Positions 2,150 to 50,736 of a stretch of DNA of 64,000 bases are shown in pieces. Numbering within the stretch: the first letter of the stretch is position 1; the number at the start of each line of letters is the position of its first letter. This stretch comes from Kofleriaceae bacterium (GTDB lineage Bacteria; Myxococcota_A; Polyangia; Haliangiales; Haliangiaceae), in contig JABTUH010000016.1 of assembly GCA_015075455.1 (NCBI GenBank), forward strand, positions 128,001 through 192,000, read 5' to 3'. The notes under the pieces are model-generated. The model ran no database searches and was not told where the DNA came from. It worked only from the letters and a program-made list of their open reading frames with translations. A program made the position numbers and the translations under genes.

Positions 2150-3720
2150 GCCGCCGGGATAGAGCCCGGCCAGATCGGGGCGAAATAGCGTCGACGGATC
2201 GCGCGGCATCCGGACCCTGCCTCCGCCGCGACTCGACGCCGACCGGCACCCCTCCTCGGAGCCGAAGCCGCGGATGGTGCCCGCGAACGCGCGCAGCGCG
2301 ACGCGCAGCCGCGCGGCCAGGTCGAGGCCGCTGGGTGTCGAGGACCGCCGCGACGTCGCCGCCGGCCAGCCCGGCTGGTGGCCTCGAGCGGGGACCGTCG
2401 ACGAGGCGCCGCGCCGGCGACGAAGTCGGTGACCCGGGTGGCCGGCGCCGCCAGCGCGCCGCCGCCGGCGGCGGCCGCCGCCTCCTCGATCCGCGCGTGC
2501 TGCAGCGCGACCCAGGCCAGCGGCCCGGCGGCCCAGCGCCGCGCCAGGCGTCGGCGAGCGAGCGACTGCCCGACCACCAGGCCGGAGCCGAACGGCGAGT
2601 CGCGGCGCGACAGGCTCCAGCCGTTGACCACCACCCCTCGGGCTCGGTCGCCGCCGGCACGATCCACCCGCCCGGGCACATGCAGAACGAGAACACGCCG
2701 CGCCGTCCTCCGTCGCCGTCGCCTGGTGGACCAGCCTGCCGGGCCGCGGCCCGCAGCCGCGGGTGGCCGGCGCCGCGGCCGTACTGGGCCTGATCGATGA
2801 GCGGAGCGGGTGCTCGACCCGGACCCCGACCGCATCCGGCTTGGCCTCGAGCCCGACCCCGGCCGCCGCCAGCCAGCCCCAGACGTCGCGCGCCGGTGTC
2901 CGGTCGCCACGCACCACCGCTCGCGCCGCCAGCGTCCCGGCCGTCCGCCAGCCGGACACCGGCCACCACCGGGCGGCCGCCGCGGCTCGCCACCAGCAGG
3001 CCCTCGGCACGCGCCGGCAGCTCGAAGCCGACCTCGCACCCGGTCCTCGGCGCTCGCGCAGCGAGGTCGATCACCCGCGGCAGCTTGCCGGAGCCGATGT
3101 GAGGCCGGGCGTCGACCAGGATGTCGGCGGGCGCGCCGTGCACCACCAGCAGCAGCTGATCACGTCGCGGACGTCGCCGCGCTTGTGGGCCCGCGGTGTA
3201 GAGCTTGCCGCCGCTGGCCGTCCGCGCCGCGCTCGCCGAAACAGTAGTTGCTGTCGCGGTCGACGGTGCCGTGCTGGGTCAGGCCCGCAGAGATCGCGCC
3301 GCCGCGCCTGCACCAGCTTGCCGCGGTCGAGGACGATCGAGGCCACGCCGTGGCGCGCCAGCTCGTGGGCACAGAAACAGCCTGCCCGGCGACGGCGCCG
3401 ACGATGATCGATCGCCGCGCGAGCGCGACGTGTCCAGCGGGCCGGTCCCTGCGCGCGGCGGCGCGGCCATCGCCGGCGCGCGGACCGCGCGCTTCGAGGT
3501 GGAGCGACCCGGTGGCGCGGGCGTCGATCGCGTCGGCGCCGCATCCGACGGCGGCCGCGCGCGGCGCCGACCTCAGGACGCCTCGGCGTGGCCGAGCCAG
3601 CCCAGGTACGCGAGCGCTCGGAGCGCGCGGCGGTCGGCCAGGTGTGCGCCGGCCAGCGCCGCTCTCGCCCGCTCGATCCGGAGACCCAGCGCGAACGGGC
3701 TTCAACGCGCGGATGCGCCT
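2150..3720 (-). pseudogene. FAD-dependent dehydrogenase (COG2509-like, SFCMCPGG family). Many frameshifts.
   Basis: Reverse-strand fragments in 3 frames match the conserved order of this family: ...AGCFCAHELARHG..IVLDRGK (FAD-binding GxGxxG region), SNYCFGERGADG, LPRVIDLAARAPRTGCEVGFE, VWGWLAAAGVGLEAKPDAVGVRVEHP, FSFCMCPGGWIVPAATEPEG, VVNGWSLSRRDSPFGSGLVVG, RVTDFVAG. Confidence 0.55.
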
Positions 3721-9017: not shown

Positions 9018-9723
9018 ATGGCCGTGATCCGCGGGCCTGTCGCCGCCGCCGCGCCGCCGCCAGCGGCGACGAGCCGGCGCGCCTGCGCCGCCCGCGCCGC
9101 CGGATCCGGCTCGAGAACGACCAGCGCAAGGCCCAGCTCCTCGCGCTGGGCCAGCAGGCGTTCTCCGAGCGCACCTACGACGAGGTGTCGATCGACGACA
9201 TCGCGCGCGCCGCCGGCATCTCCAAGGGCCTCCTCTATCACTACTTCCCGCCGACCAAGCGCGACCTCTACCTCGCCGGCCTGCGCGCCACCGCCGCCGA
9301 TCTGATCGAGCGCACGACCGCGGCGGCCTCCCCCGAGCTGCCGCCGCTCGATCGGATGCGGGCCGGCCTCGACGCCTACCTCGACCACGTCTCGCGCCAG
9401 GCCCGCCCGTTCGTCGCGCTGATGCGCGGCGGCATCGGCTCCGATCCGGAGGTCGTCGGGGTCATCGAGGGGGTGCGGGCGACGTACGTCGAGCACTTCC
9501 TCGACAACGCCGAGGGCACGCCGCTGGCCGGCCTGGCGCTGGCCAACCGGCCGCTGCTGCGGATCGCGGTGCGCGGGTGGATCGGCTTCGTCGAGGCCGC
9601 CAGCCTGGAATGGCTGTCGCGCAAGGACGTCGAGCGGACGACCTGGTGCGCGACCTCCTGGTCGACGCGCTGCTGGCGCCTCGCTGCGGCTGGGCGCGGC
9701 GGCTGGCCCCCGCGCCGAGCTGA
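9018..9723 (+). CDS. TetR/AcrR-family transcriptional regulator. Frameshift near the N-terminus and near the C-terminus.
   Basis: HTH RIRLENDQRKAQLLALGQQAFSERTYDEVSIDDIARAAGISKGLLYHYFPPTKRDLYLAGL. The C-terminus DDLVRDLLVDALLA..* is recovered in another frame, with TGA at 9721. Confidence 0.6.
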
Positions 9724-9739
9724 GCTGCGGCGCGGCGCG

Positions 9740-10290
9740 ACGGTCAACGGCGCTTCGTAGGTGAGGAGCAGGCCCGGCTCGCCGCGGTGGCGGGTCTCGA
9801 TGCACGAGATCCGGGTGAAGCCGGCGCGCTCGGCGACGCGGAGGGAGGCGGTGTTCTGGCCCTCCATCACCGCGATCACGCGGGCGAGCCGGAAGGGCCC
9901 AGGAGCCAGTGGCAGATGCCGTCGACGGCGGCGGTGGCCAGCCCCTGGCGCTGGTGGGCGGGCGATCGGCAGCCGATCTCGGCGGAGGCGGCGTCCACCA
10001 GGCGCACGCCGAGCATCCGACCAGCGCGCCGTCGGCGGCGCGCCTCGATCGCGAGCTGGAACCAGGGGGTCGGGCGCGTCGCACGGCTCGCGCGCGGTCA
10101 TCGCCTGCAGGTCGCGCTCGATCTCGCCCGGATCGACCACGCCCCAGCCCTGGTAGCGGGCCACCTCCGGCAGGCGGCGGCGACCGACCGCCGGGACCTC
10201 CGCCATCGCCAGCCGTCGCAGCCGCACCGGCCCGGCTGCCAGGGGTCGCTCCAGGTCATGGCTGATGGTCGGCCGTCGGGGGCGGACCGC
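9740..10290 (-). pseudogene. GNAT-family N-acetyltransferase (RimJ/RimL-like). At least 2 frameshifts.
   Basis: LRRLAMAEVPAV..LPEVARYQGWGVVDPGEIERDLQAM. Then ...GMLGVRLVDAASAEIGCRSPAHQRQGLATAAVDAICHWLLG and FRLARVIAVMEGQNTASLRVAERAGFTRISCIETRHRGEPGLLLTYEAP. Confidence 0.5.
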
Positions 10291-22054: not shown

Positions 22055-22301
22055 CCCGGATCGCCCGCGCGCCGCCGGCGAAGCGGATGAGGTGAACGCG
22101 CGGGCCCTGCGACGCGCGCGGCTTGCGCGGTCCCGGGGCCCCTGCGCAACACCCCCAACGGGCGTTCACGCCTGGTGGCCGGACCTCCTGGGTTCGCACC
22201 TCTCCAAGCGGCTGATCTTGCACACCTCAGGGCCGCCTCACGGGTCCGGACCGGAGGATGCAATCGCCAGACGGTGTACGATCAAGCCCAGAGGAAACCC
22301 C

Positions 22302-22955
22302 ATGAAGCGTAGCCACCTCGTTGCCCTCGCCGCCGTCACCCTCGCCCCGGCCGCCGCCGCCGCTCAGCCTGGCTACGGGGCGCCCCCGCCCCCGCCGCCA
22401 CCGCAGGGCTATTACTCGCAGCCGCCGACGATCCCCGGCGGCTTCCACGACCGCACCGGCCGCATGGCCCTCGGCTTCTCGCTCGGCCTGGGCGGGCTGA
22501 ACGTCGGCGGCGAGGAGGTGACCTGCCCGTCGTGCGACTACGATCCGCTCGCGGTCGAGTTCGACTTCCACATCGGCGGCATGCTGTCGCCGCGCTTCGC
22601 GCTCCTGTTCGAGGTCCAGGCCAACGGCCAGACCATCGCCGAGAACGCGTACGGCGCCGCCAGCCTGGTCCAGGCCACCGCCATGGTCGCCGGCCAGTAC
22701 TGGCTGACCCCGCAGCTCTGGGTCAAGGGCGGCATCGGCGCCGCCAGCCTGTCGTACAGCTACGACGACGGCTACGCCTCGGACAGCGAGAACATCGGCG
22801 AGGGCATGGCGGTCATGGGCGCCATCGGCTACGAGGTGCTGAGCGCGCCCACGTTCTCGATCGACCTGCAGGGCCGCATCATCTCGGGCAGCTACGACTC
22901 GTTCGACGAGAACGTCACCGCGGGCTCGATCGGCGTCGGCTTCAACTGGTACTGA
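22302..22955 (+). CDS. Outer-membrane beta-barrel protein (porin / OmpA-like barrel family), signal peptide MKRSHLVALAAVTLAPAAAAAQ.
   Basis: Intact 217-aa ORF. RBS GAGGAA 6 bp upstream. Alternating beta-strand pattern ending in aromatic ..GVGFNWY. Confidence 0.75.
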   Translation: MKRSHLVALAAVTLAPAAAAAQPGYGAPPPPPPPQGYYSQPPTIPGGFHDRTGRMALGFSLGLGGLNVGGEEVTCPSCDYDPLAVEFDFHIGGMLSPRFALLFEVQANGQTIAENAYGAASLVQATAMVAGQYWLTPQLWVKGGIGAASLSYSYDDGYASDSENIGEGMAVMGAIGYEVLSAPTFSIDLQGRIISGSYDSFDENVTAGSIGVGFNWY

Positions 22956-26760: not shown

Positions 26761-28014
26761 ATGCGAGCGAACCCGCACTTCCAGAAGCTGCCCGCCGGCT
26801 ACCTGTTCCCCGAGATCGGCCGGCGCGTGCGCGCCTACGCCGCCGCCCACCCCGCGGCCAAGGTCATCCGCCTCGGCATCGGCGACGTCACCGAGCCGCT
26901 GGCGCCGGCGATCGTCGCCGCCATGCACGGCGCGGTCGACGAGCTGGCCCGCCGCGAGACCTTCCGCGGCTACGGCCCGGAGCAGGGCTACGACTTCCTC
27001 GTCGACGCCATCCGCGCCCACGACTACCAGGCCCACGGCCTCGACGTCGCCGCCGACGAGATCTTCGTCTCCGACGGCAGCAAGTGCGACAGCGGCAACT
27101 TGCAGGAGCTGTTCGCCGCCGACGCGGTGATCGCCGTGACCGATCCGGTGTACCCGGTCTACGTCGACTCCAACGTCATGGCCGGCCGCACCGGCGCCCC
27201 CGACGCCGACGGCCGCTACCCCGGCCTGGTCTACCTGCCGGCGACCGCGGCCAACGGCTTCTGCCCGCCGCCGCCCGAGGTCATGGACGCCCACGGGATC
27301 GACGTGGTCTACCTGTGCTCGCCCAACAACCCGACCGGCGCGGTCATGACCCGCGACCAGCTCGCGGCCTGGGTGGCGTGGGCGCGCGCCCACCAGGCCC
27401 TCATCGTCTTCGACGCCGCCTACGAGGCCTACATCCAGGATCCGTCCCTGCCCCGCTCGATCTACGAGCTGCCGGGCGCGCGCGAGGTCGCGGTCGAGCT
27501 GCGCAGCTTCTCCAAGCGCGCCGGCTTCACCGGCGTGCGCTGCGGCTTCATGGTGGTGCCCCGGGAGCTGCGCGCCACCGGCGCCGGCGGCGAGGAGGTG
27601 TCGCTGCACGCGATGTGGTCGCGCCGGCACACCACCAAGTTCAACGGCGCGTCGTACGTGGTCCAGCGCGGCGCCGCCGCGGTCTACACCGCCGACGGCC
27701 TGGCCCAGACCGGGGCCCAGATCGCGTTCTACATGGAGAACGCCCGCATCCTGCGCGCCGGCCTCGCCCGCGCCGGCTTCACCGTGTACGGCGGCGAGCA
27801 CGCGCCGTACATCTGGCTGGAGACGCCGACCCGGGACGGCCGCCGGCTGACCTCGTGGGAGCTGTTCGATCTGCTCCTCGACAAGGCCCACCTGGTGGGC
27901 ACGCCGGGCTCGGGCTTCGGGCCCGCCGGCGAGGGCTACTTCCGGCTGTCGGCGTTCAACTCGCGCGACAACGTCGAGGAGGCGGTGGCGCGGCTGGGGC
28001 GGGTCTTCGCCTGA
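26761..28014 (+). CDS. dapL: LL-diaminopimelate aminotransferase (DapL).
   Basis: Intact 417-aa [52 protein letters not shown]...[19 protein letters not shown]...[25 protein letters not shown], characteristic of DapL. Confidence 0.9.
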
Positions 28015-33000: not shown

Positions 33001-33790
33001 TCCGCCAGAGCAGGAACATCGCGCGCGGCGCAGTCGGCGTCGGCGTCGCGCGGCGCGCGCGCTGGCGACGGAAACGGCGGCCGCGTCGACGACGAGCAGC
33101 CGAGCGGCGCCGGCTCGAGTGGCCTGCTGTCGCTCGGCGCCAGCGCACGACCGGCGACGCCGCCCTCCGCCAAGGGTGCGGTGTTGCTGTCGATCGAGGG
33201 GCACACAACGCGCGACGGCCAGGAGCCAAAGCGATCGACCGCAGCTTCGGCCGCCCGCGCCCGCGCCGTGCTGGCCGGGGATTCGCGCGGCCCAGCGCAG
33301 TGCGAGTGCTGGTGCGCATGATGCCGCATCTGGGCCAGCCGCCCCGCTGTCCTGCACCACTGGCCGGCGCCAGGTGCGCACGGCGCGGCGGCCGGCTCCG
33401 GTGGGGAGCCGGCGCGGCCCTGGTGCGCGGGCATCGAGCCGCATGTTACGCAGCAGCGGCGCCGCGTCCGTGGCATGCGCGCGCATGCCCGCCGCGTCAA
33501 GCCAGGCCGCCGCCGTGCTCGCCGAACGCCTGCGCGCGCGATGGCGCCAGCACCGGCGCGCCTCCCGTTCGCCGGCAGCGCAAATAGAGCGTGGCTAACG
33601 CGCGCGTCAGGCGACGGCGATCGCCTCGACGCCCAGCCCGCGCCCGCACCGCGACGCCGGACTGGCCTCCGGACGCCGCACATTCGGCGCCGCGAGCCGC
33701 GCCCGCCTCGACGCCCGATTCGCCCGCCTCCACGCCAGCGCCTGGCCGGCGCCCGCCGCCGAGCCGATGTGCGACGCTCGCATGCGCCAC
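30060..33790. other. ~3.7-kb ultra-GC-rich tract (locally >80% GC) with no recognisable coding gene in any frame. It contains dispersed copies of GGCGTGACGRCGGTGGGCCGGCGG-like repeats around 31.1-31.4 kb, and a ~300-bp lower-GC island at 31.6-31.9 kb.
   Basis: All six frames give only Arg/Ala/Gly/Pro-rich nonsense. No frameshift-tolerant match was found to any family I know. Repeat copies read at ~31150, 31250, 31322, 31362. Confidence 0.4.
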
Positions 33791-35070
33791 CCCGCCACGG
33801 CGACTGGCTCCGCCTCGAGCTCGAGCACCAGGCCCGCTACGAGCACCTCGCGAACGACTTCCGCAGCGGCGCCGACGGCGACGCCCGCGGCGCGTCGATG
33901 CGGACCCTGGTCCGCGTCGAGGTGTGGCGCGGCGCCGCCCGCCTCGGCCTCGAGCTCCAGGACGCGCGCGCCTACGTCGCGGACGGCACCCCGGTCAACT
34001 CGACGCTGTCGAACCCGATCGAGCTGCTCCAGCTCCACGTCGGGTGGAAGGCCGCCGGCCTGCTCCGCCCCGGCGACGGCTTCGACGCGCGGGCCGGGCG
34101 CATCACGATCGACCTCGGCACCCGCCGCCTCGTCGCCCGCAACCGGTTCCGCAACACCCTCAACGGCTTCACCGGCGTCGACGCCACCTGGACCAGCGCC
34201 GGCAAGCACGTCGCCCGCGCCCTCGCGGCGGTGCCGGTGACGCGGCTGCCCGCGGACGCCGACGCCCTGCGCGCCAACGAGGTCGAGCTCGACGAAGAGA
34301 ACCTCGACGCCGTGGTGTGGGCCGCCGCCTACGGCTCGCCCGCCCGCCTGGCCGGCGGCCAGCTCGAGCTGCAGGTGGTCGGCTACCACGAGCGGGACGG
34401 CGACGTCGCCAGCCGCGACCGCCAGCTCGTCACGCTGGTCGCCCGATGGGTGCGCAAGCCGGCGCCCGGCGCGCTGGACGTCGACCTCGAGCTGATGCCG
34501 CAGGCCGGCACCTCGCGCGCGACCACCGCCGCCACCGACGCCACCGATCTCGACCACCGCGCCCTGTCCTGGCATGCCGAGGTCGGCCTCAGCGCGCCCA
34601 TGCCGTGGCGGCCCCGGTTCGCGCTCCAGCACGACTTCGCCAGCGGCGACGGCGACCCGGCCGACGGCCGGATGGGGCGCTTCGACCCGCTCTTCGCGGC
34701 ACGCCGCTTCGACTTCGGCCCGACCGGGCTCTACGGGCCGTTCGCCCGCAGCAACCTGCAGTCGCCAGGGCTGCGCGTCAGCGTGGTCCCCGGCGCGCGG
34801 CTCGACGCGGTCGCCGCCTACCGGCTGGTCTGGCTGGCCTCGGCGCGCGACGCGTGGACCACCGCCGGCCTCCGCGATCCCGACGGCGACTCGGGCACGT
34901 TCCTCGGCCAGCACGGCGAGCTCCAGGTGCGGTGGAGCCCCCTCGGCAAGACCCTCGCGGTCGAGGCCGGCGCCGCCCACCTGCGGCGCGGCCAGTTCGC
35001 GCGCTCGGCGCCCGGCGCTCGCCGCGAGGCGGCGACCTACGGGTACTTGCAGCTCAACGTATCGATCTGA
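33780..35070 (+). CDS. Alginate-export (AlgE-like) family outer-membrane beta-barrel protein. The N-terminus and signal peptide are not resolved.
   Basis: WLRLELEHQARYEHLANDFRS...DARAYVADGTPVNSTLSNPIELLQLHVGWKAAGLLRPGDGFDARAGRITIDLGTRRLVARNRFRNTLNGFTGVDATWT...WRPRFALQHDFASGDGD...GDSGTFLGQHGELQVRWSP..., ending YLQLNVSI. Confidence 0.6.
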
Positions 35071-35173
35071 TGGCGCCGCGCGTCGACGCCCTGCGCTGAC
35101 ACGCGTCAAGTCGCGGCCGGTGGCGTGGCCGCGGTTAACCCACCGCTGACCGACGCCGCGAGCAGGGGACACG

Positions 35174-35198
35174 TCGCGACGCGTACGATCGATCGTAC
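35174..35198. promoter_or_regulatory. Perfect 16-bp palindrome GTACGATCGATCGTAC (35183-35198) preceded by GTCGCGAC. It abuts the ATG of the secreted-protein gene, with no Shine-Dalgarno sequence in between.
   Basis: Read directly. AT-rich palindrome in a 73% GC genome. Candidate operator or leaderless-start context. Confidence 0.4.
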
Positions 35199-35200
35199 AG

Positions 35201-36835
35201 ATGACGTCCCGACGCCTCGACGGTCCGGCCGCCGTCGCCCTCGTCCTCGCCGCGCTCGCCGCCGCCACCGCGGCTCCCGCCCGCGCCGAGGAGGTGCAGC
35301 TCTCCGACGGCTCGCGATGGGAGATCCGCGACCTCGTCCTCACCCGGATCGCGCCATCCCCCGCGATCCAGATCCGCACCGCGGTCTTCAACGTCGGCAT
35401 CGGCTGTGCCGAAGGGCTGGATCGAAGGTACCGCGTTGGACACCGCGCGTACGTCCCGCCGTCTGCCTACCCCGTCGCGGTCGAGGAACCCGACGGCGGA
35501 CGGGTCCGCGGCGTGGTGTGCGCCGACCTCGATGGCGCCGCCGTCGTCACCACGATCACCTGGACCGGGGCGCCGACGCCATCCGATCACGCGTCGGTGA
35601 GGGGAGTGCTGGAGGCGCTGTTCACCGACCTGAAGGGGTTCGCGTGGCCGGCAAGCTCGCTCTCGCTGTTTCAGCCCTCGATCCTGGCGGTGCCGCTGGA
35701 CGCCCGCACCGGGACCTGGAACTTCGTCTCCGGCAAGGTCGATGCCATGTCGACCCTCCTGTTCATGCTGTGGCCGCAGGGGCCGCCCGCAGCCATCAGC
35801 ATGAACCGCCCCCGCGTACGGCAGCGCTGCGACGAGGTCGGGCTGCGACAGCCTCGGCCGTCGTGGGCGCCAGCGAGCTTCTACCCGCTCGGCGCCACAC
35901 GCGGCGACTCGGCGCTGGCCTGCCTCGACCCCGCCGATGGTCACGCACTCATCGTCCAGGTCCGGCTCGCCGACCCGGCCGACGGATCGCGGGTGCGCGC
36001 CCTGCTCGAGGCGATCGCCGCCGCCGCCGGCGCCGCGCGCCCGCCCGCCACGGCGCCACCGCCGCCGTCGCCGGCGCCCCCTGCCCCCCCGGCGGTGAGG
36101 CCATCGCCGGCGGCGACCCCGACGCCGCGGCCCGCGACGTCCGCCCCGCTGGCCGCGGCCGCGACGACGGCCGCGCCGCCCTACGACGGGTCGACCGCCC
36201 CGTACCTCCGCGCCAGCCGCCGCCACGACGACGAGGCTGACGACCTGGCGCCCTACGCCGGTCGGCGCGACCACGCGCTCGGGCTCGGGCGCCGGCACTG
36301 GCGCGTCGAGCTCCACCAGCTCGCGCCGGGGACGGCGGTCGCTGCCACCGAGACCGCGCTCGGCGCCGGCGCCGGCGTCGGCGCGCTGCGTCTGTGGGGG
36401 CGTCCGTGGAACGCGCTGGCCGGCGGCCTCGAGTACGACGCCAGCGCCGCCGTCGAGCGCTCGTCGAGCGTCACCTTCGACACCCACGCCGGCGCGATGC
36501 TCGGCCTGCGGCCGGGCCCGACGCTGGTGATCCTGGGCGGCTTCGGGGTCGGCCTCGACGGGCTCGGGCTCGGCGCCGCCGACGACCGGCCGGCGCTCGA
36601 CGCCGGCCTCTACGGCTACGCCGGCATCCGCGCCCGGCTCGCGCTCGGTCGCCGCCTCGGCCTCGACGCCTGGGCCCGCCGGCTCGATCGCGCCGGCGAC
36701 GTCGGCGAGACCCGGTACGGCGCCGAGCTGACGATCCACCGCCGCCGCGGCGCGTCGGTGGTGGTGGGCGCGCAGCGCACGACCTACGACGACCTCGCCG
36801 ATCGGGTCGGGGTCTCCCTGGGCGTCCGCCGCTGA
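35201..36835 (+). CDS. Secreted hypothetical protein (signal peptide [29 protein letters not shown]) with a Pro/Ala-rich linker and a Gly-rich C-terminal domain.
   Basis: Intact 544-aa ORF. Clear signal peptide. No family recognised. Confidence 0.55.
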
Positions 36836-36900: not shown

Positions 36901-37470
36901 ATGCCGCTGTCCCGCGACGAGGCCTGGGCCCTGTTCACCACCTGGACCACCGGCGACGCGCTGCGCCGCCACGGCCGCGCCGTCGAGCTGGTGATGCGCG
37001 CCGCCGCGCCGCGCTACGGCGGCGCCGACGCCGACGTCGAGCAGTGGGGCCTCGCCGGCCTCCTGCACGACGCCGACTACGAGGCCTGGCCCGACGAGCA
37101 CCCCCACCGCGTCGTCGGCTGGCTGCGCGAGCGCGGCGAGGCCGCCCTGGCCCACGCCATCAGCGCCCACTACACGCGGTGGGGCGTGCCGTACGAGAGC
37201 GCGCTCGACCGCGCGCTGCTCGCCTGTGACGAGCCCACCGGCTTCGTCATGGCCTGCTGCCTGGTCCGCCCCGACGGCATCGCCACCCTCGAGGTCGCCA
37301 GCGTCAGGAAGCGCCTCAAGGACAAGCGCTTCGCCGCCACCGTCGACCGCGGCGAGGTCACCGCGGGCGCGGAGCTGCTCGGCGTCTCGCTCGACGCGCA
37401 CCTCGCGTTCATCATCGGCGCGCTCCGCGCCCACGCCACCGAGCTCGGCCTCACCGGCCGCGCGACCTGA
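36901..37470 (+). CDS. HD-domain (HDIG-like) metal-dependent phosphohydrolase.
   Basis: [13 protein letters not shown]...[18 protein letters not shown]; 189 aa. Confidence 0.6.
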
Positions 37471-50234: not shown

Positions 50235-50337
50235 CGACCCGCCCTAGCAGTAGCACGGCACCGGACCCATTTCTATGGACCGACCCCGCCGTGCCCGACG
50301 AGGTCCCGCTCTGGTAGGATCGTGGTGATGGGCTCAC

Positions 50338-50696
50338 CCGAGACGCCGCGTGACGGCGAGCGCGTGCAGGTCGACGCGTTCGTGAGGGCCGCCTCGGGCG
50401 GCCACGAGCTGGTCTTCCGCACCCGCGATCTCTCGCGCTCGGGCCTCTTCCTCTACACGAAGGTCGCCCACTCCTATCCGTTCCGCCCCGGCTCGCGCCT
50501 CCACATCGAGCTGTTCGACTACGACCAGAGCATCGCGCTCGACGTGGTGGTCGCGCGCGTCGTCGAGCCCGGGAGCCCGGAGGCCGACTCGTTTCCGACC
50601 GGCTTCGGCGTGCGCATCCTGGACACCGACGCCCCGACCCAGGCCCGCCTCGAGGCCCTCATCGAGCGCATCCGTGCCGGTGGCGGACCGTACTGA
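50338..50696 (+). CDS. Single-domain PilZ protein (c-di-GMP receptor family).
   Basis: 119 aa: VQVDAFVRAASGGHELVFRTRDLSRSGLFLYT...RLHIELF...GFGVRILD. Confidence 0.6.
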
Positions 50697-50736
50697 CCGT
50701 GGGGCGGTGTAACCGGGGTTCCTACATGTAGGAAGT

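Follow-up and report, generated by a model that had tools for sequence, protein, structure and literature searches.

A start-codon-proximal palindrome in a Kofleriaceae genome as a probable near-leaderless promoter and possible repressor site

Introduction

In high-GC bacteria, a TAnnnT hexamer located some 12 nt upstream of the start codon and accompanied by a degenerate -35 region is the signature of leaderless genes (Zheng et al., 2011, PMC3160421). Leaderless starts with an adjacent -10 box are well established in such organisms (de Groot et al., 2014, PMC4007540; PMC12340547), and leaderless promoters have likewise been described in M. tuberculosis (PMC3898074). By definition, the leader of these transcripts does not exceed 5 nt (PMC12754779). 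For the myxobacteria, leaderless mRNAs are mentioned in passing in the same article, and this mention was all that our literature search on leaderless mRNAs in Myxococcota returned. Operators of dimeric repressors can occupy the same part of a promoter: the IR1 site of QacR from Staphylococcus aureus, CTTATAGACCGATCGATCGGTCTATAAG, covers the transcription start region from -6 to +21, and not the -35 box (PMC9210681).

Here, we analyse a perfect 16-bp palindrome that abuts the start codon of a gene for a putative outer-membrane protein in a 64,000-nt stretch of Kofleriaceae DNA (hereafter, the window; GC content about 75%). The locus resembles the leaderless promoters of Actinobacteria and Deinococcus-Thermus in that a TAnnnT hexamer lies near an ATG or GTG, the Shine-Dalgarno (SD) sequence is missing, the -35 region is weak or absent, the GC content is high, and many genes share this arrangement. 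It differs from them in its host, a Myxococcota lineage, and from typical leaderless promoters in that the first T of the hexamer is placed 17 nt, rather than about 12 nt, from the start codon. We propose that the palindrome combines a leaderless or near-leaderless core promoter with an overlapping repressor operator, a reading to which we assign a probability of about 0.5.

Results

An AT-rich palindrome adjoins the start codon of a surface protein gene

The palindrome, GTACGATCGATCGTAC, has a GC content of 50% and is separated from the ATG by two bases, AG (Table 1). Within the local sequence, gacacGTCGCGACgcGTACGATCGATCGTACagATGACGTCC, its symmetry stops at 16 bp. The ATG is directly preceded by CGATCGTACAG with no SD sequence at -5 to -15, and the nearest G-rich run, GGGGA (35166-35170), lies about 31 nt 5' of the ATG. 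At the centre of the palindrome, CGAT is repeated in tandem, (CGAT)2, a sequence that is self-complementary by construction, and GATC (in overlapping copies), CGATCG and GTAC each occur twice in the element as a whole. A sequence-only reading of the window had drawn attention to the palindrome, to its distance of 2 nt from the ATG, to the missing SD sequence and to the statistical rarity of so AT-rich an element in this genome, and all four observations are borne out. Palindromes of at least 16 bp with a GC content of no more than 50% were obtained in only 2 of 200 second-order Markov simulations; the window holds a second one at 50719-50734. GC-rich palindromes of at least 16 bp, numbering 15 in the window, were present in every one of the 200 simulations. 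At the composition of the window, chance would be expected to produce the exact 16-mer about 2e-4 times and GTACGA-N4-TCGTAC about 0.1 times per 10 Mb, naive estimates that are too low because the (CGAT)2 centre is automatically self-complementary, and the palindrome was moreover picked out of many windows.

Allowing up to four mismatches, the window contains the 16-mer a single time, and neither further copies at this threshold nor gapped variants (GTACG-N4-8-CGTAC, TACG-N4-10-CGTA) were found in the window, L001 (a contig of an 81%-identity relative) or L010 (a contig beginning inside the gene). The search for additional copies suggested by the sequence-only reading thus left the full site unique in these sequences and yielded one lone half-site, GTACGATC, at 22276, which looks like a -10 box (TACGAT) positioned 21 nt 5' of an SD-led gene. 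No minus-strand ORF starts at the mirrored -10 hexamer, leaving divergent use of the palindrome unsupported. The 8-bp palindrome GTCGCGAC, which had been noted as preceding the 16-mer, is present and begins one base earlier than had been indicated; its relevance finds no backing in conservation: L004, the relative with 96% identity, has GTCGCGTT at this place, and L001, the relative with 81% identity, has GTCGGAGC.

Table 1. Features of the locus and start regions with TAnnnT hexamers elsewhere in the window.
Feature	Position	Strand	Details
Alginate_exp-family outer-membrane protein gene	33490-35070	+	Pfam PF13372, E = 4.8e-42; gene call from L005; 5' end uncertain
Conserved GC-rich hairpin CGCGCGTCG...TGACGCGCG	35077-35105	+	consensus fold of three lineages; predicted structure
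8-bp palindrome GTCGCGAC	35173-35180	.	probably incidental; short GC-rich palindromes abundant here
16-bp palindrome	35183-35198		perfect
Predicted -10 hexamer TACGAT (TAnnnT)	35184-35189	+	left arm of palindrome; 11 nt upstream of ATG
Putative transcription start zone	35195-35199	+	6-10 nt after -10, standard geometry
544-aa outer-membrane protein gene	35201-36835	+	ORF; signal peptide coded by 35201-35287
HD-domain gene	36901-37470		TACCAT + 7 nt; no SD
apbA	start 41183		TAGAGT + 6 nt; no SD
pirin gene	start 44532		TATCCT + 7 nt; no SD
fumA	start 28399		TAGACT + 9 nt; no SD
clpP			TACAGT + 11 nt; same spacing as palindrome gene; spacing conserved in L010
Further SD-less start	55869	-	TAnnnT at 6-9 nt
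Further SD-less start	58607		TAnnnT at 6-9 nt
Further SD-less start	6080	-	TAnnnT at 6-9 nt

No possible start of the downstream ORF precedes the ATG at 35201. The next one in frame is a GTG at codon 32, past the signal peptide, and homologues align from the same N-terminus, so that the start codon is sound and a true start further downstream with its own ribosome-binding site, part of the case that had been named as refuting the sequence-only reading, is not borne out. The signal peptide, 29 residues long, is directly followed by EE. No Pfam family matches the 544-aa protein, and only 19 homologues were recovered among 1.84 billion representative proteins; the closest genome match is the metagenome-assembled genome (MAG) "uncultured delta proteobacterium PRO4" (96% identity). 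An AlphaFold2 model (pLDDT 69) divides the protein into an alpha/beta domain (residues 30-275), which carries four cysteines that are invariant in the homologue alignment, a low-confidence, disordered linker rich in Pro and Ala (283-363), and a barrel (364-543). Among the Foldseek matches are the beta domains of BrkA, NalP, AIDA-I and EspP, the C-terminal barrel resembling an autotransporter beta-domain, and judged from this model the product is an outer-membrane anchored, autotransporter-like protein.

The intergenic region between the stop codon of the upstream Alginate_exp gene and the ATG comprises 130 bp. A conserved hairpin begins 7 nt after this stop codon, includes the near-palindrome TGACACGCGTCA at 35097-35108, is perfect in both L001 and L004, and lacks a U-tract; it probably represents a terminator-like element between two transcription units, and its conservation downstream of the Alginate_exp gene suggests separate transcription of the two genes. 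A scan of 34900-35400 for intrinsic terminators gave no site, the palindrome itself being AT-rich and devoid of a T-run. Rfam returned no relevant match, neither in an E-value scan of 34500-35800 nor in a gathering-threshold scan of the whole window, and no tRNA or tmRNA genes were found. On the 3' side, the small HD-domain gene is followed by clpX, clpP and tig on the other strand.

Gene starts in this lineage appear largely independent of SD sequences

We inspected the gene starts called on L005, a contig identical to the window. These starts repeatedly lack an SD sequence and carry a TAnnnT hexamer a few nucleotides upstream instead (Table 1). The hexamer is scarce, with only 44 occurrences on both strands of the window, 10 of which lie 5-9 nt upstream of the ATG or GTG of a long ORF (at least 100 codons, GC3 above 0.85), whereas seven control hexamers matched for composition class have this position in 12 of 516 occurrences (Fisher p = 1e-6). 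The same pattern recurs in L001, L010 and L011, the last being a contig from a Kofleriaceae MAG, and the local TAnnnT promoters show no -35 consensus. As far as can be read from sequence, gene starts in this lineage of about 75% GC are largely SD-independent, with a -10 box beside the start codon. This habit weakens the argument that the sequence-only reading drew from the lack of room for an SD sequence, since SD-less starts are the norm here.

The left arm of the palindrome provides a candidate -10 box

TACGAT, in the left arm of the palindrome, is the only plus-strand TANNNT of the intergenic region. Its spacing of 11 nt to the start codon exceeds the modal 6-9 nt. From the standard distance between a -10 box and the start of transcription, we infer a leader of 2-6 nt, most plausibly of 4-5 nt, which would place the transcript in the leaderless class as delimited by a leader of 5 nt or less. 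A consensus promoter scan of 34900-35400 returned nothing; the scan is uninformative, however, because it demands a -35 box, which the local promoters lack. For the same reason, the absence of a -35 box at the palindrome is no objection to a promoter at this site. Taken together, these data make it likely that the palindrome carries the promoter of a leaderless or near-leaderless mRNA. The leaderless start considered in the sequence-only reading is thus well supported, the left arm being a TAnnnT box like those of many other genes here, with the qualification that the predicted leader is short and not zero.

The one natural substitution keeps the candidate -10 motif but not the symmetry

The 16-mer is perfect in L004, and 15 of 16 positions are retained in contigs from the 81%-identity relatives (L001-L003), where the element reads GTACGCTCGATCGTAC; its distance to the ATG is always 2 nt. 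The single substitution, A to C, changes the -10 hexamer to TACGCT, breaks the palindrome without compensation and keeps TAnnnT. That the sole change destroys the symmetry but preserves the hexamer favours the -10 box as the selected feature. Conservation of the 16-mer as such is not significant, since the entire intergenic region is well conserved: intergenic divergence amounts to 7% in L004 and 19% in L001, and the corresponding changes in the palindrome, 0 of 16 and 1 of 16, have probabilities of 0.31 and 0.16. L001 has an additional SBP gene inserted on the upstream side, but the 135 bp that immediately precede the ATG persist as a block. The site is unchanged in the contigs L005-L009 from Logan and ENA.

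Close homologues of the protein are limited to two, with 96% and 81% identity, and an exhaustive HMMER search gave no homologues between 81% and 44% identity. Deeper phylogenetic footprinting failed because there are too few relatives. A genome scan added L010 and L011, the latter with a distant homologue (39% identity), which has no palindrome and uses a GGGAGG SD sequence.

The core of the palindrome matches a class of TetR-linked operators

When JGI metagenomes were searched for the exact 16-mer, 89 stretches were returned. None of these belongs to the lineage of the window and, therefore, the scan provides no evidence for a regulon; many of the matches in high-GC stretches fall within coding regions. 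In 24 of the 89 stretches the symmetry continues outwards for 2 bp or more on either side, and many of these read ATAGTACGATCGATCGTACTAT. When about 520 kb of these stretches was searched with a small profile of the TetR helix-turn-helix, only six TetR ORFs were recovered, five of them distinct (L022 and L039 being the same). In four of the six cases the palindrome is no more than 1.3 kb away, and all four proteins have the Pfam domains TetR_N and TetR_C_13. Two stretches (L019 and L092) contain two tandem sites each, located between the TetR gene and a divergent methyltransferase gene. A third (L076) carries TACGTACGATCGATCGTACGTA, with a C before GTAC, 33 nt upstream of the TetR ATG. In the fourth (L074), the site overlaps the TTGACA-N17-TACTAT promoter of an OsmC gene, whose -10 hexamer TACTAT is supplied by the right arm; a second, degenerate site is also present and a TetR gene of the same subfamily is found 1.3 kb away. 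Homologous TetR genes (72-88% identity; L101-L107), fetched independently of the DNA pattern, all possess two tandem sites a short way upstream, whose consensus is TAGTACGAnCGnTCGTACTA; we group the sites of the four stretches above with them as TetR_C_13-linked operators. Judged by the position of these sites relative to TetR genes, GTACGA-N4-TCGTAC with a central CG would be the inner core of a genuine and widespread class of TetR operators. Our literature search retrieved no publication containing TAGTACGAnCGnTCGTACTA or the sequence of the palindrome, the QacR IR1 sequence being its only yield.

The window site shares with the TetR_C_13-linked sites the half-sites GTACGA and TCGTAC, a 4-nt centre containing CG (GTACGA-TCGA-TCGTAC) and the overlap with a promoter. 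In contrast to the consensus TAGTAC...GTACTA, the outer TA...TA is missing, a C preceding GTAC as it does in L076, and the flanks reading cgcGTAC...GTACaga in the window and gcgcGTAC...GTACcga in L001. The tandem sites are about 28 bp apart, whereas the window site is single, with no second match at up to four mismatches, and no TetR gene adjoins it. A second likeness concerns QacR IR1 and the CgmR operator of Corynebacterium glutamicum, in which the central CGATCGATCG is identical. The window palindrome matches the centre of QacR IR1 at 12 of 16 positions, and both sites cover a transcription start region, a predicted one in the window, although IR1 is 28 bp long, has outer TATAGAC arms and binds two dimers. 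Neither a QacR-like protein nor an efflux gene is in evidence at this locus.

The lineage DNA that we searched (about 110 kb) encodes a single TetR protein, at approximately 9020-9757 of the window, which is also the only one among the window, L001, L010 and L011. It is of the TetR_C_46 type, and its gene lies 26 kb from the palindrome and has an unrelated upstream region. None of the 33 neighbouring ORFs scanned with Pfam encodes a transcription factor, and no MocR protein was detected in the ORFs scanned, the region of 1-17 kb being partly annotated. The ORF at 26761-28014, outside the Pfam scan, was read by eye from its translation as an LL-diaminopimelate aminotransferase. Of the regulators that had been put forward as nearby candidates, MocR was not found in the scanned ORFs, and TetR is present as a member of another subfamily at a considerable distance.

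The idea of an operator for a dimeric regulator, also raised in the sequence-only reading, gains from the identity between the core of the palindrome and that of the TetR-linked operators, and loses from the absence of a cognate regulator, a second site and conservation above background. On balance, we regard an additional function as operator as a tentative assignment with slightly less than even odds, and a regulator of the TetR family as rather doubtful. Both estimates are held down by the missing outer TA/TA positions, tandem site and adjacent TetR gene, and by the fact that the only TetR protein of the lineage belongs to a different subfamily.

Discussion

In the combined reading that we propose, TACGAT in the left arm would serve as the -10 box of the outer-membrane protein gene, and RNA polymerase would initiate transcription about 7 nt downstream of it, inside the right arm, giving rise to an mRNA with no leader or a leader of a few nucleotides that is translated without an SD sequence. 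The dyad symmetry, which takes in the -10 box and the start site, would at the same time constitute the operator of a helix-turn-helix repressor that acts as a homodimer and most likely belongs to the TetR family; this repressor would recognise GTACGA-N4-TCGTAC in a QacR-like or TetR_C_13-like manner and block RNA polymerase until a ligand releases it from the DNA. The transcription start, the binding of a protein and the identity of the regulator are all elements that we infer from the sequence.

A promoter in the left arm does not need a protein partner, and the palindromy could be a by-product, an account of the locus that we consider plausible but less probable than the combined reading. 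It might have arisen, for example, by slippage duplication of a 4-bp CGAT unit in an older 12-bp GTACGATCGTAC, which yields a palindrome automatically and lengthens the spacing from 7 to 11 nt. Indeed, removal of one CGAT unit leaves TACGAT followed by 7 nt and the ATG, the modal geometry among the genes of the window, together with a 12-bp palindrome of a kind that is common here (80 in the window). The lack of a cognate regulator, of a second site and of conservation above background fits with this account, as does the sole natural variant, in which the symmetry is lost and TAnnnT is kept. It accounts less well for the retention of the 16-mer, duplication included, across three lineages, the most distant with 81% protein identity, and for the rarity of AT-rich palindromes of this length in the simulations, and it would leave the exact match of half-site and spacing to the core of a TetR operator class as a notable coincidence. 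A palindrome without any role, with the promoter located elsewhere, would be in line with the selection of the finding from many windows, the uninformative conservation and the empty consensus promoter scan. The last of these is explained by the -35 box that the scan requires and that local promoters do not have, and given that the only intergenic TAnnnT lies in the palindrome, with a spacing to the ATG that is also seen at other genes here, we judge pure chance to be very improbable.

The self-complementarity might instead act at the level of RNA. In phage T4, gene 38 possesses a split ribosome-binding site with a hairpin close to the start codon. The window similarly places self-complementary sequence between a G-rich stretch and the AUG, and if transcription started upstream, a GUACGA/UCGUAC stem-loop could control ribosome access or bring GGGGA near the AUG. 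Such a stem-loop does appear in the minimum free energy fold of 35160-35240, and the G-rich element (GGGGA/GGGA) about 31 nt upstream is conserved. Unlike its T4 counterpart, however, the stem is weak (-5.0 kcal/mol), weaker still in the L001 variant (-3.2 kcal/mol), and probably not fully transcribed: there is no other -10 candidate upstream in the intergenic region, so that the RNA probably begins inside the palindrome and the full hairpin would be absent from the mRNA. The regional fold shows no extra stability relative to shuffled sequences (z = +0.44), Rfam offers no match, and SD-independent starts are the norm here. We therefore consider the hairpin-regulated start, which the sequence-only reading had entertained, to be unsupported and highly unlikely. 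A further account involves DNA methylation. The E. coli autotransporter gene agn43 is controlled by a Dam/OxyR methylation switch. By analogy, the clustered GATC, CGATCG and GTAC sites could be methyltransferase targets that switch expression of a surface protein, an idea that accords with the sequence composition and with the autotransporter-like architecture of the product. The ORFs scanned encode neither a methyltransferase nor a competing regulator, GATC is not rare at the composition of the window, and phase variation finds no evidence, the site being unchanged in L005-L009; among the accounts considered here, we deem this one the most remote.

The combined reading of promoter and operator would make the palindrome region an element of an ordinary kind, namely a promoter of the leaderless type that a repressor site may overlap. 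A more specific version, in which one 16-bp element, placed 2 nt from the start codon of a leaderless mRNA, unites -10 box, transcription start and operator and is run in trans by a distant TetR_C_13-like repressor, seems unlikely to us. TetR regulators normally act on a neighbouring gene, and control in trans by a distant repressor would therefore be unusual. If this holds, expression of an autotransporter-like surface protein would respond to a small molecule in an uncultured myxobacterium related to the Kofleriaceae.

The gene starts described here would also document pervasive leaderless expression in this branch of the Myxococcota. SD-independent starts matter for gene calling in such genomes and for the way in which a "missing RBS" is read. 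The palindrome itself offers a clean test case, given that the promoter function is assigned to its left arm and the possible operator function to its right arm. Finally, a by-product of the analysis is the widespread consensus for putative tandem operators of a TetR_C_13 subfamily, which is very large: 7834 of 8000 scored candidates reached E <= 1e-20.

Gene starts in this Myxococcota lineage

Throughout the window, a TAnnnT box lies 6-9 nt (sometimes 11 nt) upstream of ATG or GTG codons that have neither a Shine-Dalgarno sequence nor a -35 consensus (Table). Ten of all the 44 TANNNT occurrences in the window, itself a small number, are so placed before a start. The same arrangement is present in an 81%-identity relative (L001), on a relative's contig (L010) and on a Kofleriaceae contig carrying a distant homologue (L011), and we conclude from sequence that this Myxococcota lineage makes pervasive use of predicted leaderless-type starts. 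No genome-scale account of such starts in Myxococcota was found in the searchable literature.

The half-site GTACGATC has a single other copy in the window, in the 22276-22305 region, 21 nt upstream of an ATG (22303) that has GAGGAA ahead of it. Here, TACGAT near 22276 probably serves a conventional, Shine-Dalgarno-led gene as its -10 box, and both modes of initiation would therefore coexist in this genome.

Positions of predicted sequence features
Feature	Sequence	Position
Leaderless-type starts	Window	6080(-), 26672(-), 26761, 28399, 36901, 39488(-), 41183, 44532, 50328, 55869(-), 58607
Predicted operator sites	Metagenome stretches with the target 16-mer	L019 1540-1600; L092 550-605; L076 3043-3064; L074 124-175
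Predicted operator sites	Contigs of homologous TetR genes	L101 1385-1440; L103, L105, L107 each about 1435-1490
GC-rich, conserved hairpin 3' of the Alginate_exp gene	Window	35077-35105
	L001	about 3040-3070

The target protein family

The protein encoded at 35201-36835 belongs to a tiny, unannotated family, with 19 matches among 1.84 billion representatives and no Pfam model. In its members (the window protein and P0002-P0020), a signal peptide precedes a domain of roughly 250 aa in which four Cys residues, as well as Trp residues, are invariant; a linker rich in Pro, Ala and Ser then leads to a C-terminal beta-barrel, often with an aromatic last residue. This layout is autotransporter-like.

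A predicted TetR_C_13 operator class

On contigs of the TetR_N plus TetR_C_13 subfamily, two tandem TAGTACGAnCGnTCGTACTA sites lie just upstream of the TetR gene, whose neighbour is often a class-I methyltransferase gene in divergent orientation. The tandem sites are the predicted operator consensus of this very large subfamily (E <= 1e-20 in 7834 of 8000 scored candidates); the linked 16-mer is absent from searchable papers.

Hairpin and further palindromes

The hairpin downstream of the Alginate_exp gene has a 9-bp stem (CGCGCGTCG/TGACGCGCG) with no U-tract after it. Within the hairpin lies TGACGCGCGTCA; this 12-bp palindrome is perfect in L001 and in the 96%-identity relative (L004) and has one mismatch in the window. 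L001 keeps the hairpin despite another gene inserted upstream. That gene (L001 1933-2853), encoding a periplasmic solute-binding protein, separates the Alginate_exp gene from the promoter block, and two directly repeated, tandem copies of cgcctcccaaccccgggc (2950-2985) lie in the enlarged intergenic region.

A PilZ-domain gene (50322-50696) ends 23 nt before a second perfect, AT-rich 16-bp palindrome in the window, TTCCTACATGTAGGAA (50719-50734, 38% GC), which sits within a 240-nt gap; beyond the gap lies a convergent 158-aa gene. The palindrome has no Rfam match and the convergent gene no Pfam match.

An extended palindrome, ATAGTACGATCGATCGTACTAT, recurs in eight low-GC metagenome contigs (42-50% GC; L012, L015, L028, L035, L065, L069, L094 and L097), with no recognisable TetR gene nearby; in L028 a perfect palindrome of 58 bp is centred on it.
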